Positions 1,497-5,999 are shown, counted from the stretch's first letter. The stretch is DNA of 50,508 bases from Candidatus Micrarchaeia archaeon (GCA_033853355.1 JAWOLP010000002.1:1-50508), one strand, 5' to 3'. Translations and numbers: made by a program. Notes: a model not told the origin generated them from the sequence alone.

Positions 1497-1739
1497 TCAC
1501 CTCTTCCTCTTCACGCCCTCCGGCGTGACTGGGTCGTCCTTCCTTGCGGCCAACCTCGGCTTCTTCGTGGAGAGCTCCAGGAGATAGACCCTCATCGCCT
1601 CCCTGATCTCCCGCTCTATCTCCTTCTCGGACGAGACCTGGACGCTGCAGCCCGGAAGCTCGGGCACGCTGGCCGCGAAGCCTCCTTCCGGCAGGGGCTC
1701 CACTTTCACCCGGTAACCCTCTATCATGAGCTCTCTCAT
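1497..1739 (-). CDS. hicB: HicB-family antitoxin (80 aa)
   Basis: EGGFAASVPELPGC…EIREAMRVYL; 4-bp overlap with the upstream HicA-containing gene. Confidence 0.85.
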   Translation of the reverse strand: MRELMIEGYRVKVEPLPEGGFAASVPELPGCSVQVSSEKEIEREIREAMRVYLLELSTKKPRLAARKDDPVTPEGVKRKR

Positions 1740-2707
1740 AATCCCATCTCCTCCCTTTTCTTCTGGAACGCCTCGAGCGGGATGCCGCTCTCGCGGAGCT
1801 TCATCCGTATCAGCCCTGCCCCGAATTGTTTGCTCGGGCCGTGCGCGCTCTGCACGACCGAGACCCTGCCGTCCTTGTGCGACAGCACCCTGTGCGAGCC
1901 GCCGCCCTTCTGCTCGAAGCCCAGGCCCCGGAGCACCTTTATGAAATCGTCCGGGTGGATGGGGCTGATCCTGAATTTCTGCCTCCTCTCCTCTTCGGCC
2001 GGGGCTGGCTCGGCGCGCTCCTCGACGGGCTTGAGGTCCATTATCCTGGCGACCTCGTGGTAGCTCTCCGCAAGGATCTCAGGATAGCTCATGTATATCG
2101 GCTCTGCCATCCCCAGCTCGGCGTAGCGGTTGTCTATCATCGTCTTCTTCGCTTCCATGGCCTCTATCTCCATGGTGAAGCCGCGGTCGTCGGCGATGAG
2201 CAGGAGCTCGGGCTTCCTCCCGAACAGCCCCTTCACGGCGATCTCCGGAAGCGAGCTGCTCAGTATGGTCTCCACGCGCTCCTCCAGCTTCCTCTCGCCC
2301 AGGAAGTCAAGCACGTGAGCCATCGCTTTCTCGTCCGTTATCCCGATCGAGGCGAAAAGGTCCAGCGCCTTCTTGCTGATGGGCATCTCGGACGCCTCCT
2401 TCCAGGGCGGCGGCTGCCTGCCGCCCTCCCTCCGCTTGCGCTCCATCTCCCTCTCGTGCGCCTCGTAATGCAATGACGAGAGTCGGAGGATGAGGTCCTC
2501 CGCCTTCCTCAATGCCTCCTTCCTCCCCTTCTCCCTCGCTTTCTCCTCGTTGTAGAGGCGGAGCAGGAAATGGAGGCTCGTCCTTGAACTGATCGCGCCT
2601 TCGTGGCCCAGCTCGAGGGCCACTTCCTTGACCTGGTCCTGCAGGCCCGGCTCGATCGTGCCGAACCTCATCCTTCTCAGGGCGGGACCGCAATCGCCTG
2701 GATCCAT
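1736..2707 (-). CDS. Unknown ~240-aa N-terminal region fused to a C-terminal HicA mRNA-interferase domain
   Basis: C-terminus FIKVLRGLGFEQKGGGSHRVLSHKDGRVSVV…GLIRMKLRESGI has the HicA pattern with GSH. Confidence 0.8.
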   Translation of the reverse strand: MDPGDCGPALRRMRFGTIEPGLQDQVKEVALELGHEGAISSRTSLHFLLRLYNEEKAREKGRKEALRKAEDLILRLSSLHYEAHEREMERKRREGGRQPPPWKEASEMPISKKALDLFASIGITDEKAMAHVLDFLGERKLEERVETILSSSLPEIAVKGLFGRKPELLLIADDRGFTMEIEAMEAKKTMIDNRYAELGMAEPIYMSYPEILAESYHEVARIMDLKPVEERAEPAPAEEERRQKFRISPIHPDDFIKVLRGLGFEQKGGGSHRVLSHKDGRVSVVQSAHGPSKQFGAGLIRMKLRESGIPLEAFQKKREEMGL

Positions 2708-2789
2708 GCAAAGGAAGATGCGGCGAGGCGGATTTAACTGTATCTGCCATCCGGTCCCTATTTATAATGCCGCGTCCCCCATTGTACTG

Positions 2790-3236
2790 ATGGCCACCGC
2801 CCCCTCGCAGAAAAAGGTCGCCCGCGCCGAAGCGCTCGACTCCCTCTCGGCGCTGTCGCAGCTCGCCCCGGGCATCGCGGACCAGCTGGCCATGCCGGAA
2901 TCCCTCTTCGAGCTGGGCCCGTGCTCGTTCTCCTCCGATCCGGCCCTCCCCGCCTCGGTCGTCAGCGGCTGCTTCCGCGCGCGCCTGGGGCTTCCGCAGA
3001 GGCTGCCGGACTACGCGATAGACGTCTCGCAGTTCGGGAGCTCTCTCTTCTGCACATTCATCGACAAGAGCAGGAAGGTGATCGCGGGCGTGCGCATCGG
3101 GAGGACCGGCGAGGTGGACTGGGACGCCCTCACGCTCGCGATACGGGAGGCCCTGAGGCTCTCGGCACGCCTGCGCGCATCGAAAAGGAGATTCAGCTAC
3201 GTGATGGCCGGAGACGATGGCGCGGAGCCGGTCTGA
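2790..3236 (+). CDS. Hypothetical protein (148 aa)
   Basis: ATG 2790 lies ~25 bp after TTTATAAT at 2761; sits between the two paralogues. Confidence 0.65.
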   Translation: MATAPSQKKVARAEALDSLSALSQLAPGIADQLAMPESLFELGPCSFSSDPALPASVVSGCFRARLGLPQRLPDYAIDVSQFGSSLFCTFIDKSRKVIAGVRIGRTGEVDWDALTLAIREALRLSARLRASKRRFSYVMAGDDGAEPV

Positions 3237-3237
3237 T

Positions 3238-5865
3238 TCAGACTGCCCCGGCTTCGGCTTCCGTCTCGTGCTCCGCCGCATGGGCCCGCGGAGCCGAAGG
3301 CCGCGAGCCGAAAATTATCTCCTCGGCCTTCATCGCCGCCAGGCGCGCCCTCTGGCCGCCCGAGGCTGAAGCGACCTCAGGGTCGGATGCCACGCGGGCC
3401 GCTATCGAGCCGCCGTTGCGCCTCCCCAGGCGCAGCAGCCTCGCGGCCTTGGCTATCCTTCCCTCGTCGCTCTGGTCTGGCGATTCGGCGGTCTCGATCA
3501 TGGCGACGGCGATCTCGGCCACCTTGGCGGGCAGCCTCTCGAGGTGGGCCATGCTCCCCGCCATGAAGCCGGCCCTGTATTCCGCGCCGGCCTCCGGGCT
3601 CGACACGGCGTCCATCGTGATCGCGCACTGGGATGCCGAGAGCATGACCCTCCCGTCCTCCCTCTCGATGCGGGCCCGCCCCCCCTGCGAAGGTATCGTC
3701 TGGCCGACGTGCTCGGAAGCGTCGAACCCTATGCCGATCATCCTGCCGTCGTTCTCCCTCAGGATGCGCCTCCGGACGGAGCGGACATCGGCGCCCTCAG
3801 GGGGAAGCGGCGTCTGGGCGGCCGAAGCGATCTCGGCCAGTATCAGGGCGGCGCTGGGCACGCTCCTGGGGCTGATCATCCCCGCCGCCGCGGCCCTGCT
3901 CATCCCCTCGTGCAGGTGGACCGCGAAGTCCGCGGCAGCGTTGTGGAAGTCGCGGTTGAAGTCCGAGAAATCCGGCCTCCCCCCTGTGGACTCGATGAAA
4001 TTGCCTATGCCGTCCATGTCCGTCGGCTGGAACGTGATCTGTTTCCCCTCCTGCCCCTCCACGAGGAGGACGTAAGTGTTGGGCGGCCTCCGGTCTGGCA
4101 GGAGCGTCCTCCTGGACATCTCGAAATAGGCGAGGAGCGACCGCACGACCGCCTTCCTCCCTTCCTGGGTGGAGAGCGCGCTGTAGAACTCGCGGTGGAG
4201 CGGGTCGGAAGGGTCCGGCCTCAGCGTCAGGTCCTCCTTGAACATCGCGGCCCCCCTGGGGACGGCGTCCTCGAGCGCCAGCCTGAGCGGGGTGCGGATG
4301 CGGACGCGCTGCCTCCTGCCGACCTCTCTTGCGTCCTCGGTCAGCGCGAACGACCTGCCGTCGGAGAGGGTGAACCTGCCCCTCAGGTCTTCGCAGATTA
4401 TGCCGTGCGATACCATGCCGGTCGCCTCAGAAAGCTCCTTCCCGATCCGCGCCGGTTCCATGTCCTGGAGGCTCAGGTAAAGCCTTTTCTCGAGCGAGCC
4501 CTTCTCGCCCAGCAGCTGCAGCTCGAAGGCGCCGCTGGCGCCAACGAGATAGCCGAACCGGCCGATCTTGAGGCCGTCCAAGTCGAAGTTCCGCCTGACG
4601 ATCCCTTCCAGGTCCCTCGACACCACAAGCTCGAAAAGATAATGTAGGCTCGAATCGAACCTCTGCTGTTCCCTCGAAGGCGTCCTGCTGCCGCTCTCCT
4701 CGCTGATGCTTTCGCGCATGCTCGTGAGCTTCGATACGTCGATCCCCAGCTCGTGGAGGGCGGCGAGCATCCCCTCTCCCCCTCCGCCCTTCTTCCTATA
4801 CGCGGCGGCAGCCCTCCTGGCCGCGCCGGTGCCCAGAGCCTCCAGCTGGCCGATCGCATCATCCGCCTTCTCCGCGCCCCGCGGGGCGGCGCCGGCCTTC
4901 CTTGACATCGCCGATGGCACGTCCGGGACGGTGCTCTCTCCGGCGCCCCTGCCGGATTCGCGGTCCGCTAGGGCCCTCGCCCTCCTCAGCAGCCTCCTGA
5001 GGGCCGATTGCGCGAATTCCCCGCTTCCAGGGTCTGATATGACAGTGCCGGTCCCGTCGGAGCCTTCAAGGACGAGGGACCCGGACCTCTCGGCCAGCGA
5101 GAATCCGAGCTCGCCTATGGCCGCGCGAAGGGAGCCAGGCTCGGCCGCTTCGCCCTTCTCTCCGGCAAGGCCCAGGCCCTTGCAGAGCTCGCCGTAGCCG
5201 ACGAGGAGGGCTCCGGGCGAGCGGCCATAATCGGCCCACACCGGCGTCTGCGCCCCGGTCTCCTCCCTCCAGGCGTCGATCAGGCCTTTCTTGTGCCCCA
5301 TCGCCTTTATCTCGCGGTCGTATTCGGCGTCCTTGGGTATCCTGAGCGTCTCAGGATTCTCCGCGAAGACCGCCTTGACCAGCTCCTCCCCTATCGGCGA
5401 AGCCCTGGCGGCGTTCACGCGCTCCTCGGCCTTGGCCTCGCCCAGGAACCCGATGGTCTCGGATATCTCCTTATCATCGGTTATCCCGATGGACCCGAAG
5501 AGCTGCCGCATCCTCGTGCTGATGCGCATGTCCTCCTCGATCCCCGCCCGGTTGAAATTAGGTTTCTTCTCCTCGCGGCGGCTCCTCTCCTCCCTCTTCT
5601 CCGCCTCGTGGTGGAGCGAGAGGCCGGCGAGCCGGAGGATGAGGTTCTCGGCCTTCTTGAGCCTCTTCAGGTTTTTCCTCTGCTTGACCTTCTCGGCCTG
5701 GTAAATCTTGAAAAGGAAGTGCAGGTCGCTTGACGCTGTGATGGTGACCTCGTAGCCGTGCTCCTCCGCCAGCTCCATCACGCTCGTGAGCAGCTCCGGG
5801 TCGAGCTGGCCGACCTTTATCCTCTTGAGCATCGGTCCGGCCGTCTCGATATCCAACGAAGCCAT
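3238..5865 (-). CDS. 875-aa paralogue of 1736..2707 with a degenerate HicA-like segment and a putative atypical (HipA/PI3-PI4K-like) kinase domain
   Basis: N-terminal blocks align by eye (LHFL, AE.LILRL, F.SIGITD, FLGE.K.EERV); PDRRPPN…FQPTDMD resembles DRxxxN…PxD kinase loops. Confidence 0.7.
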   Translation of the reverse strand: MASLDIETAGPMLKRIKVGQLDPELLTSVMELAEEHGYEVTITASSDLHFLFKIYQAEKVKQRKNLKRLKKAENLILRLAGLSLHHEAEKREERSRREEKKPNFNRAGIEEDMRISTRMRQLFGSIGITDDKEISETIGFLGEAKAEERVNAARASPIGEELVKAVFAENPETLRIPKDAEYDREIKAMGHKKGLIDAWREETGAQTPVWADYGRSPGALLVGYGELCKGLGLAGEKGEAAEPGSLRAAIGELGFSLAERSGSLVLEGSDGTGTVISDPGSGEFAQSALRRLLRRARALADRESGRGAGESTVPDVPSAMSRKAGAAPRGAEKADDAIGQLEALGTGAARRAAAAYRKKGGGGEGMLAALHELGIDVSKLTSMRESISEESGSRTPSREQQRFDSSLHYLFELVVSRDLEGIVRRNFDLDGLKIGRFGYLVGASGAFELQLLGEKGSLEKRLYLSLQDMEPARIGKELSEATGMVSHGIICEDLRGRFTLSDGRSFALTEDAREVGRRQRVRIRTPLRLALEDAVPRGAAMFKEDLTLRPDPSDPLHREFYSALSTQEGRKAVVRSLLAYFEMSRRTLLPDRRPPNTYVLLVEGQEGKQITFQPTDMDGIGNFIESTGGRPDFSDFNRDFHNAAADFAVHLHEGMSRAAAAGMISPRSVPSAALILAEIASAAQTPLPPEGADVRSVRRRILRENDGRMIGIGFDASEHVGQTIPSQGGRARIEREDGRVMLSASQCAITMDAVSSPEAGAEYRAGFMAGSMAHLERLPAKVAEIAVAMIETAESPDQSDEGRIAKAARLLRLGRRNGGSIAARVASDPEVASASGGQRARLAAMKAEEIIFGSRPSAPRAHAAEHETEAEAGAV

Positions 5866-5999
5866 GTTCCTATATTATTAGTCACCATTTAAATTGCATG
5901 CGAATGGAACGGAAAACGGTTTTTTTGAGCGCATTTCCCCACAATCGGCCGTAAATGCACCCGGCGGTTAAAAAATACGACGGGGATTTTCAACAATAA

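Follow-up and report, generated by a model that had tools for sequence, protein, structure and literature searches.

The locus described here occupies positions 1,497 to 5,865 of a stretch of 50,508 nucleotides (nt) of Candidatus Micrarchaeia archaeon DNA (GCA_033853355.1, JAWOLP010000002.1:1-50508), which as a whole is referred to as the window. The minus strand of the locus carries, in this order, the genes for an 875-amino-acid (aa) protein (the long protein), a 323-aa protein (the short protein) and an 80-aa HicB-like protein, and a plus-strand gene for a 148-aa protein lies between the two large genes. We consider it probable that this locus of a Micrarchaeota (DPANN) archaeon holds two separate effector–inhibitor pairs, the effectors of which have in common a lineage-specific helical N-terminal module of ~235 aa (the N-module), and each of which is probably kept in check by its small partner gene. 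The first pair would be a HicAB-type toxin–antitoxin, in which the short protein tethers an intact HicA ribonuclease (RNase) domain to the N-module and the 80-aa HicB, the translation of which is coupled to that of the toxin, attaches to the HicA domain and so neutralises it, in the manner of solved HicAB complexes. In the second pair, the long protein would descend from an old duplicate of the first pair's toxin, the HicA domain of which would have decayed to a His-less structural relic, with the gain of a kinase-like domain of the PI3K/PI4K fold; the convergent 148-aa protein would travel with this kinase-like domain and cover the cleft of its active site when bound, most likely to inhibit it.

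A sequence-only reading of the window had described the two large proteins as paralogues that share a novel N-terminal region of ~230 aa ahead of different C-terminal effectors, and this description is borne out. Both open reading frames (ORFs) are present (Table 1), and BLASTP aligns residues 1–235 of the short protein with residues 4–244 of the long protein at 130 bits and E 1e-37, with 90 of 242 positions identical (37%), 54% positives and 8 gaps, an alignment that takes in all six motif pairs quoted in that reading. No Pfam domain is found in the N-module of either window protein, and the short form is accompanied by HicB at every locus surveyed (see below). In an AlphaFold2 (AF2) model of the short protein with a predicted local distance difference test (pLDDT) score of 87.6, the N-module is helical. 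Its best matches in the wide VIA search are to designed helical bundles (Z 6.5, aa 17–79) and to mTERF3 (3m66; Z 4.3, aa 101–215), both at the noise level of helical proteins; the fold searches used the whole 323-aa model, so they do not establish that the module has no known fold. When read by eye, aa 10–58 look like a ribbon–helix–helix (RHH) whose loop is longer, and the SIGITDE region like a helix–hairpin–helix; neither assignment is supported by any tool, and both remain leads. A hidden Markov model (HMM) search with the first ~100 aa of the module through 12,161 six-frame ORFs of this genome (1.47 Mb in 74 contigs, 76% complete) finds only the two window proteins.

The C-terminal end of the short protein is a HicA domain. 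Pfam HicA_toxin (PF07927) matches residues 253–309 (E 3.4e-7; 30.7 bits vs. a cutoff of 27), and the AF2 model superposes on the Thermus HicA-family protein TTHA1913 (1whz) with Z 10.8 and a root-mean-square deviation of 1.7 over 69 aligned residues (Foldseek E 3.3e-4). Further fold matches are 6g26_E from Burkholderia pseudomallei (Z 7.8), 4p78_D from Yersinia HicA3B3 (Z 7.7), 5yrz_D (Z 7.1) and E. coli HicA 6hpb_C (Z 4.3). As in the type II HicAB systems of E. coli, Burkholderia, Yersinia and Thermus, the domain has a double-stranded RNA-binding-domain-like alpha-beta-beta-beta-alpha fold with a conserved His, which in the window's protein is the catalytic-position His272, retained together with His289. 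The short protein may be an RNase and toxic.

The hicB-like gene follows in the hicA-then-hicB order of the HicAB systems, with the same kind of stop/start overlap, here of 4 nt (ATGA), and with GGAGG ~10 nt upstream. The distribution of the pair was followed in a phylum survey of 401 sampled genomes (labelled G106, G157, G244, G385, etc., with G000 for the window's own genome), 76 of which make up one family, f1. The full-length short form is found in 16 of these genomes, all of them in f1, and hicB lies directly downstream of it in 16 of 16 loci, i.e., the window, 14 of the 15 others by tblastn, and the fifteenth, in G106, by reading, where a 91-aa HicB-like ORF overlaps the stop codon by 4 nt. 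The sequence-only reading had named hicB as a possible antitoxin, and it is indeed the constant companion of the short gene. Pfam HicB_lk_antitox is matched by 14 of 16 hicB family members at E ≤ 0.1 (best 8.8e-6), and among PDB sequences the family profile retrieves 2yzt (TTHA1756; E 9.4e-4) and the HicB 6g1c (E 0.14). The short family itself forms 15 clusters of 320–331 aa in a word-based search, and the N-module alone, used as the query against 1.84 billion cluster representatives, retrieves 52 representatives at E ≤ 0.001, mostly of ~320 aa. The relatives of both the short and the long protein carry the source labels Micrarchaeia or Micrarchaeota.

Canonical HicB carries a C-terminal DNA-binding domain, either RHH or helix–turn–helix (HTH), for autoregulation. 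While similar to the solved HicAB systems in the respects given above, the short–hicB pair differs from them in others. First, the solved HicA chains that were matched are 52–70 residues long, whereas here the toxin carries the additional ~235-aa helical N-module. Second, the HicB of the window, at 80 aa, consists of a ~55-aa HicB-like domain followed by a basic, poorly conserved tail, and neither an RHH nor an HTH domain is present at its C-terminus. As one candidate role, the N-module may bind DNA in place of the domain that HicB lacks.

In the long protein, the N-module is followed by the remains of a HicA domain. The sequence-only reading had noticed here a HicA-like segment with GSH changed to GSL, and the segment is real: by hhalign, a profile of six long-family members aligns with the HicA domain of 47 short-family members (probability 97.4%, E 9.3e-12, 57 columns), and an HMM of the short-family HicA domain matches residues 238–297 of the long protein (domain E 5e-8). 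Both conserved His residues are gone (GSH to GSL and SAH to SDP), and the AF2 model of aa 243–304 consists of a helix, three strands and a helix. The relic is kept in 6 of 11 long-family members and is deleted, or nearly so, in the other 5.

The last ~500 residues of the long protein are predicted to adopt a PI3K/PI4K-type kinase fold, on which two independent aligners agree. The AF2 model of aa 241–875, built from a 16-row alignment (pLDDT 81.3; predicted template modelling score 0.76), retrieves only PI3K/PI4K/Vps34 structures among the top 50 Foldseek matches (best E 7.4e-4), and re-alignment of the top 1000 gives PI3K delta 6hi2 at Z 10.7 with 276 residues aligned. An exhaustive wide VIA search against 48,161 representative chains places Vps34 2x6f first (Z 10.1), and its best 50 rows are mostly of the kinase fold (PI3K/PIKK, Bud32, aminoglycoside phosphotransferases, CotH and Rio2). 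In common with the PI3K/PI4K/PIKK family (PF00454; Vps34 2x6f, PI3K delta 6hi2, PI4KIIIbeta 8q6g, Tel1 6sky), the predicted domain has a bilobal fold, superposing with Z 10.1–10.7 over 260–290 residues, a G-rich loop linking strands 1 and 2 (GASGAF, aa 442–447), a DRxxxN loop before a beta hairpin (DRRPPN, with D591 and N596) and an acidic motif after it (QPTDMDG, with D616 and D618). D591, N596, D616 and D618 are invariant in all 11 long-family members (11 clusters of 783–875 aa, none with a Pfam domain), and are equated with the PI3K catalytic residues by their place in the predicted secondary structure; the long protein may be an active kinase. The domain differs from the PI3K/PI4K/PIKK family in reading DRRPPN where the family has DRHxxN, in the replacement of the strand-3 Lys and in finding no match among sequence models, points that are weighed below, as well as in its fusion to an N-module and a HicA relic and its pairing with a small protein predicted to bind the cleft. 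A profile of the long family finds nothing among PDB sequences.

The gene for this small protein and the long gene run towards each other, with 1 nt between their stop codons. A complex predicted for the kinase-like region and the 148-aa protein has an ipSAE interface score of 0.80 (0.74, 0.80 and 0.81 in the individual runs), the best of three controls scoring 0.00; the ipSAE mark is attained by 116 of 157 solved complexes and by 2 of 215 mismatched pairs, which is a rough guide only, since custom alignments were used. At least 73% of the contacts are common to the runs, the pLDDT of the partner is at least 83, and the interface comprises 134–145 contacts. The predicted interface takes in the G-rich loop (aa 440–446), D616, D618 and GIGFDAS (aa 711–719), that is, the catalytic cleft, suggesting that the 148-aa protein binds over the active site and is most likely an inhibitor. 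The sequence-only reading had cast the protein as a possible antitoxin and as an ORFan. The first of these claims stands in part, as the predicted complex and the convergent adjacency make an inhibitor plausible, but the target would be the kinase-like domain of the long protein. The second does not stand, as the family is found in 22 of the 401 genomes, 20 of the 76 f1 genomes and the window's own genome among them, with the conserved motifs SFSSDP, LPDY and FCTLVDK.RKI. No match to the family exists in Pfam, NCBIfam, PADLOC or the Atlas, and among PDB sequences it gives a weak match to RacA only (E 0.0077). A relationship to HicB was also considered and rejected (hhalign of the two families, probability 0.5%).

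HipA is related to the PI3/4-kinase fold. No HipA Pfam match is found in the long protein, and HipA is not among the fold matches listed by Foldseek and VIA, which does not exclude a likeness. The concept of a kinase-fold toxin restrained by a small partner is found in the HipBA toxin–antitoxin modules (PMC8262856). Compared with the HipBA modules, the partner here has no recognisable HTH, and its gene is convergent rather than upstream.

The partner family leads beyond the long proteins. The kinase-like domain is found in 19 of the 401 genomes, all in f1, at 25–37% identity by tblastn, and, apart from the long genes and two fragments, it sits in open frames of 1,258–7,089 codons. These giant modules retain the DRxxxN and QPxDxD motifs and have a convergent 3' partner of the same family; they keep the strand-3 Lys that is lost here, whereas in the window the module belongs to a protein of 875 aa, where it follows an N-terminus derived from HicA. 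Over the whole sample, 18 of 32 matches to the partner family share a contig with a kinase-like match and are found 3' of it on the other strand; the distance ranges from 8 nt to 10.7 kb and does not exceed 0.7 kb for 9 of them. The cassette of kinase-like domain and partner is common to the giant proteins and is not a product of the duplication that gave rise to the short and long genes. In the window's own genome, the giant frame at C3:12688-33096 (minus strand, 6,803 codons) carries the kinase-like domain and shows no Pfam domain at E ≤ 0.01, except for a sub-threshold M24 match. Downstream of it (G000:C3:9000-12700, L079) are three plus-strand ORFs convergent to the giant gene, namely a paralogue of the 148-aa family (L079:1248-1883), an ORF of 183 aa that is similar in its C-terminal pattern (L079:1947-2498) and one of 240 aa that resembles ankyrin repeats (L079:2601-3323), while a 121-aa ORF (L079:3309-3674) lies on the giant's strand just past its stop.

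The four genes of the locus are not inherited as one unit. The gene order MarC-family, CoA-binding, long and 148-aa, short, hicB, thioredoxin-like is identical in G157. In other sampled genomes, the CoA-binding gene abuts the short gene directly. The position upstream of the short gene thus varies, being empty or taken up by a gene of the kinase type or of a GGDEF-like type. Twelve of the 16 genomes with the short gene and hicB have no long-type gene, three have the kinase type and one, G385, has the GGDEF-like type. One of the three is G244, in which the long and 148-aa genes are together on contig C3 and the short gene and hicB on C5. The 148-aa gene follows the kinase-like domain and not the N-module, because the pairs are split between contigs in G244, the GGDEF-like form of G385 has no 148-aa gene adjoining it, and the giants carry the cassette behind no N-module. 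From the co-occurrence of the short and long genes, the contig split in G244 and the linkage of partner and kinase-like domain, it therefore follows that the locus consists of two independently inherited effector–partner pairs. The sequence-only reading had proposed instead a single four-gene system, in which the long protein, a pseudo-RNase and kinase, works with the short RNase, with hicB and the 148-aa gene as possible antitoxins of that system. Adjacency of the genes in the window, in G157 and probably on a pair of NCBI contigs, as judged by the matching lengths (6840 and 18375) of the contigs that carry the relatives of the short, long and 148-aa proteins, would agree with such a system, and the shared N-modules could heterodimerise; the distribution just described, in which only 3 of 16 genomes hold a kinase-type long gene, and the presence of the partner family even beside giants that lack the N-module make it highly improbable, and the long protein does not hold up as the partner of the short one.

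The same N-module precedes several C-terminal ends, namely HicA in most members, a HicA relic with a kinase-like domain, a HicA relic with a GGDEF-like domain, and an HD-like end. The GGDEF-like assignments are below the Pfam cutoff in both cases (E 0.007 and 0.07). The one in G385 occupies the slot of the long gene (L034:5115-7427, contig C8) and encodes 770 aa, of which the long-type N-module and HicA relic are 43% identical to the 875-aa protein over 280 aa; its end of ~470 aa differs, with the sub-threshold GGDEF match of E 0.007 and a GDE-type motif read by eye, and the protein is 59% identical to P0048 (762 aa). The HD-like end is that of P0056 (1180 aa), in which an extended region bearing an HD-like motif (sub-threshold against Pfam HD, E 0.022) comes after the first ~190 aa of the N-module. 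In P0052 (498 aa), the SIGI(T/R)D mid-region is duplicated internally ahead of the HicA domain.

The first ~100 aa of the module alone also precede, in other genomes, a 1,656-codon frame and proteins of 440–474 aa with a beta-carbonic-anhydrase-like domain (L023:466-1887 in G262:C18 and L025:1477-2796 in G169:C8, with CxDxR and HxxC-type motifs read by eye).

A quick maximum-likelihood tree of 63 N-modules, rooted at the midpoint, a careful tree search being incomplete, places all 14 long-type N-modules in one clade among short-type ones, with 99 in the Shimodaira–Hasegawa-like approximate likelihood ratio test (SH-aLRT). The GGDEF-like form nests within the kinase-type clade with weak support, and the HD-like form stands beside a different short-type protein with a support of 100. 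From these placements, the duplication appears to be old and not local, and the C-terminal ends appear to have been exchanged at least twice. The origin that the sequence-only reading had proposed for the pair, a duplication yielding an active RNase and a pseudo-RNase/kinase, is thus right as to the paralogy and the dead HicA relic followed by a kinase fold, but the duplication would be old and the kinase cassette is one that giant proteins also carry.

Since GGDEF-like and HD-like ends also follow the module, and beta-carbonic-anhydrase-like ends follow its first ~100 aa, we infer that it is a common targeting, docking or regulatory module. What it does is also the main point on which two further explanations of the locus differ. 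According to one of them, which we regard as unlikely, the N-module acts as the sensory or regulatory input and the C-terminal domains as the outputs, in a one-component style, with the 148-aa protein a substrate or regulator and no toxins at all. Such an arrangement would suit the GGDEF-like, HD-like and kinase-fold ends, which are typical outputs, the carbonic-anhydrase-like enzymes, which are unlikely toxins, and the stable, syntenic chromosomal context. It fits poorly with the finding that HicA is accompanied by its coupled HicB at all 16 loci, which is a toxin–antitoxin signature, with the predicted placement of the 148-aa protein over the catalytic cleft, which is inhibitor-like rather than substrate-like, and with the N-module itself, in which neither Foldseek nor VIA recognises a ligand-binding fold.

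The other explanation takes the N-module for a Micrarchaeota trafficking or docking domain that delivers interchangeable effectors (HicA RNase, PI3K-like kinase, GGDEF-like cyclase, HD-like hydrolase) to cells of the host or of competitors, each with its own immunity protein, HicB and the 148-aa protein among them. HicA domains are reported at the C-termini of bacterial S8-PTS and RHS polymorphic toxins (PMC9424270), and such toxins likewise join an N-terminal part that stays constant to C-terminal enzymatic domains that can be exchanged, HicA included, and have cognate small proteins. A conserved N-terminus with swapped ends (HicA, kinase-like, GGDEF-like and HD-like) is what is found here, with a small partner for each effector type, and the kinase cassette is common to giant proteins of an episymbiotic lineage. 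In contrast to these toxins, the present proteins belong to an archaeal lineage, have no known trafficking domain or processing peptidase, have one partner that is convergent, and include ends that are not toxin-like. We consider delivery very unlikely, as the N-module shows no signal peptide, transmembrane segment or secretion-associated domain by eye and has no Pfam match, no conserved secretion genes adjoin the locus, no small partner is apparent for the GGDEF-like variant, and a carbonic-anhydrase-like cargo is unfit for the role of a toxin. If true, it would make the family the equivalent, in archaea, of the polymorphic toxin systems of bacteria, linking small effectors to the giant kinase-bearing proteins of episymbionts.

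To return to the two effector–inhibitor pairs that we favour, several observations weigh against them. For the first pair, the window's HicB taken alone is sub-threshold against Pfam HicB_lk_antitox (E 0.011; 16.3 bits, cutoff 27). The catalytic position of the short family (n = 47) is His in 29 members, Glu in 12 and Tyr, Phe or Ser in 6; because the His is replaced in 18 of the 47, a further difference from the solved HicAB systems, RNase chemistry is not universally kept. The short–hicB pair also occupies a stable syntenic slot, with the CoA-binding gene on one side and the thioredoxin-like gene on the other, which is less typical of mobile toxin–antitoxin modules. As to the N-module, Foldseek finds nothing credible beyond HicA with the 323-aa model, the family profile yields HicA-type matches only among PDB sequences and none for the module, and the ESM Atlas offers no usable match for it. 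For the second pair, the kinase Pfam models, PF00454 included, match none of the 16 long-type members (14 kinase-type and 2 GGDEF-like) at E ≤ 1. The end of strand 3, which reads FVK.ED in the giants' modules, is YLSLQD or YLHLQD in the 875-aa subfamily, and because Lys is thereby replaced by Ser or His, the domain may be a pseudokinase or may use ATP differently. Fourteen of the 32 partner matches have no kinase-like match nearby, some of them lying on other contigs of fragmented assemblies, and the partner gene is convergent, whereas immunity and antitoxin genes are usually co-directional. Finally, the 148-aa protein may instead be a substrate or an activator of the kinase-like domain, as a complex prediction cannot separate an inhibitor from a substrate.

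The features of the locus are collected in Table 1. An A/T-rich TATA-like box, TATTTATAAT, is read by eye ~20–30 nt upstream of the ATG of the 148-aa gene, in the divergent intergenic region, and another, AATTTAAAT, ~20–30 nt upstream of the start codon of the long gene, within 5866-5900. These boxes suggest separate promoters, with short or absent leaders, for the two genes. In the RNA-library run X5, two small contigs fall on the locus, one at 1516-1745 over hicB and the other at 5166-5385 in the N-module of the long gene, and the rest of the locus is uncovered; such contigs do not prove transcription and are a weak hint of it at best.

Table 1. Features of the locus, in window positions
Feature	Position	Strand	Basis or remark
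hicB-like gene, 80 aa	1497..1739	-	HicB N-terminal domain only, basic tail, no DNA-binding domain
Short paralogue, 323 aa	1736..2707	-	N-module aa 1-~235 and HicA domain aa ~246-317 (nt ~1757-1972)
Divergent intergenic region between short gene and 148-aa gene, 82 nt	2708..2789	.	TATA-like box, read by eye
148-aa partner gene	2790..3236	+	Convergent with long gene
Long paralogue, 875 aa	3238..5865	-	ORF call and BLASTP
PI3K/PI4K-type kinase-fold domain of long paralogue (predicted), aa ~377-790	3496..4737	-	AF2 model, Foldseek and VIA
Degenerate HicA relic of long paralogue, aa ~238-297	4975..5154	-	hhalign and hmmsearch; both His lost
N-module of long paralogue, aa 1-~235	5161..5865	-	BLASTP to short paralogue

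The sequence-only reading did not recognise the locus as a described system, in agreement with which neither this architecture nor the kinase-like family was found described in the literature, and the system was not found in Pfam, NCBIfam or PADLOC. As a rule, HicA toxins are very small and stand alone, whereas here a family of 52 representatives tethers HicA to an N-module and is accompanied by a HicB lacking a DNA-binding domain, which raises the question of how the pair is regulated and targeted. The paralogue is a case of domain replacement behind a constant module, in which HicA decays and other enzymatic domains are added. The 875-aa and 148-aa proteins offer a small, clonable version of a kinase-like domain and partner that are otherwise buried in giant proteins nearly impossible to study, and because this version exists, binding, inhibition and nucleotide use in the kinase-like family are directly testable.

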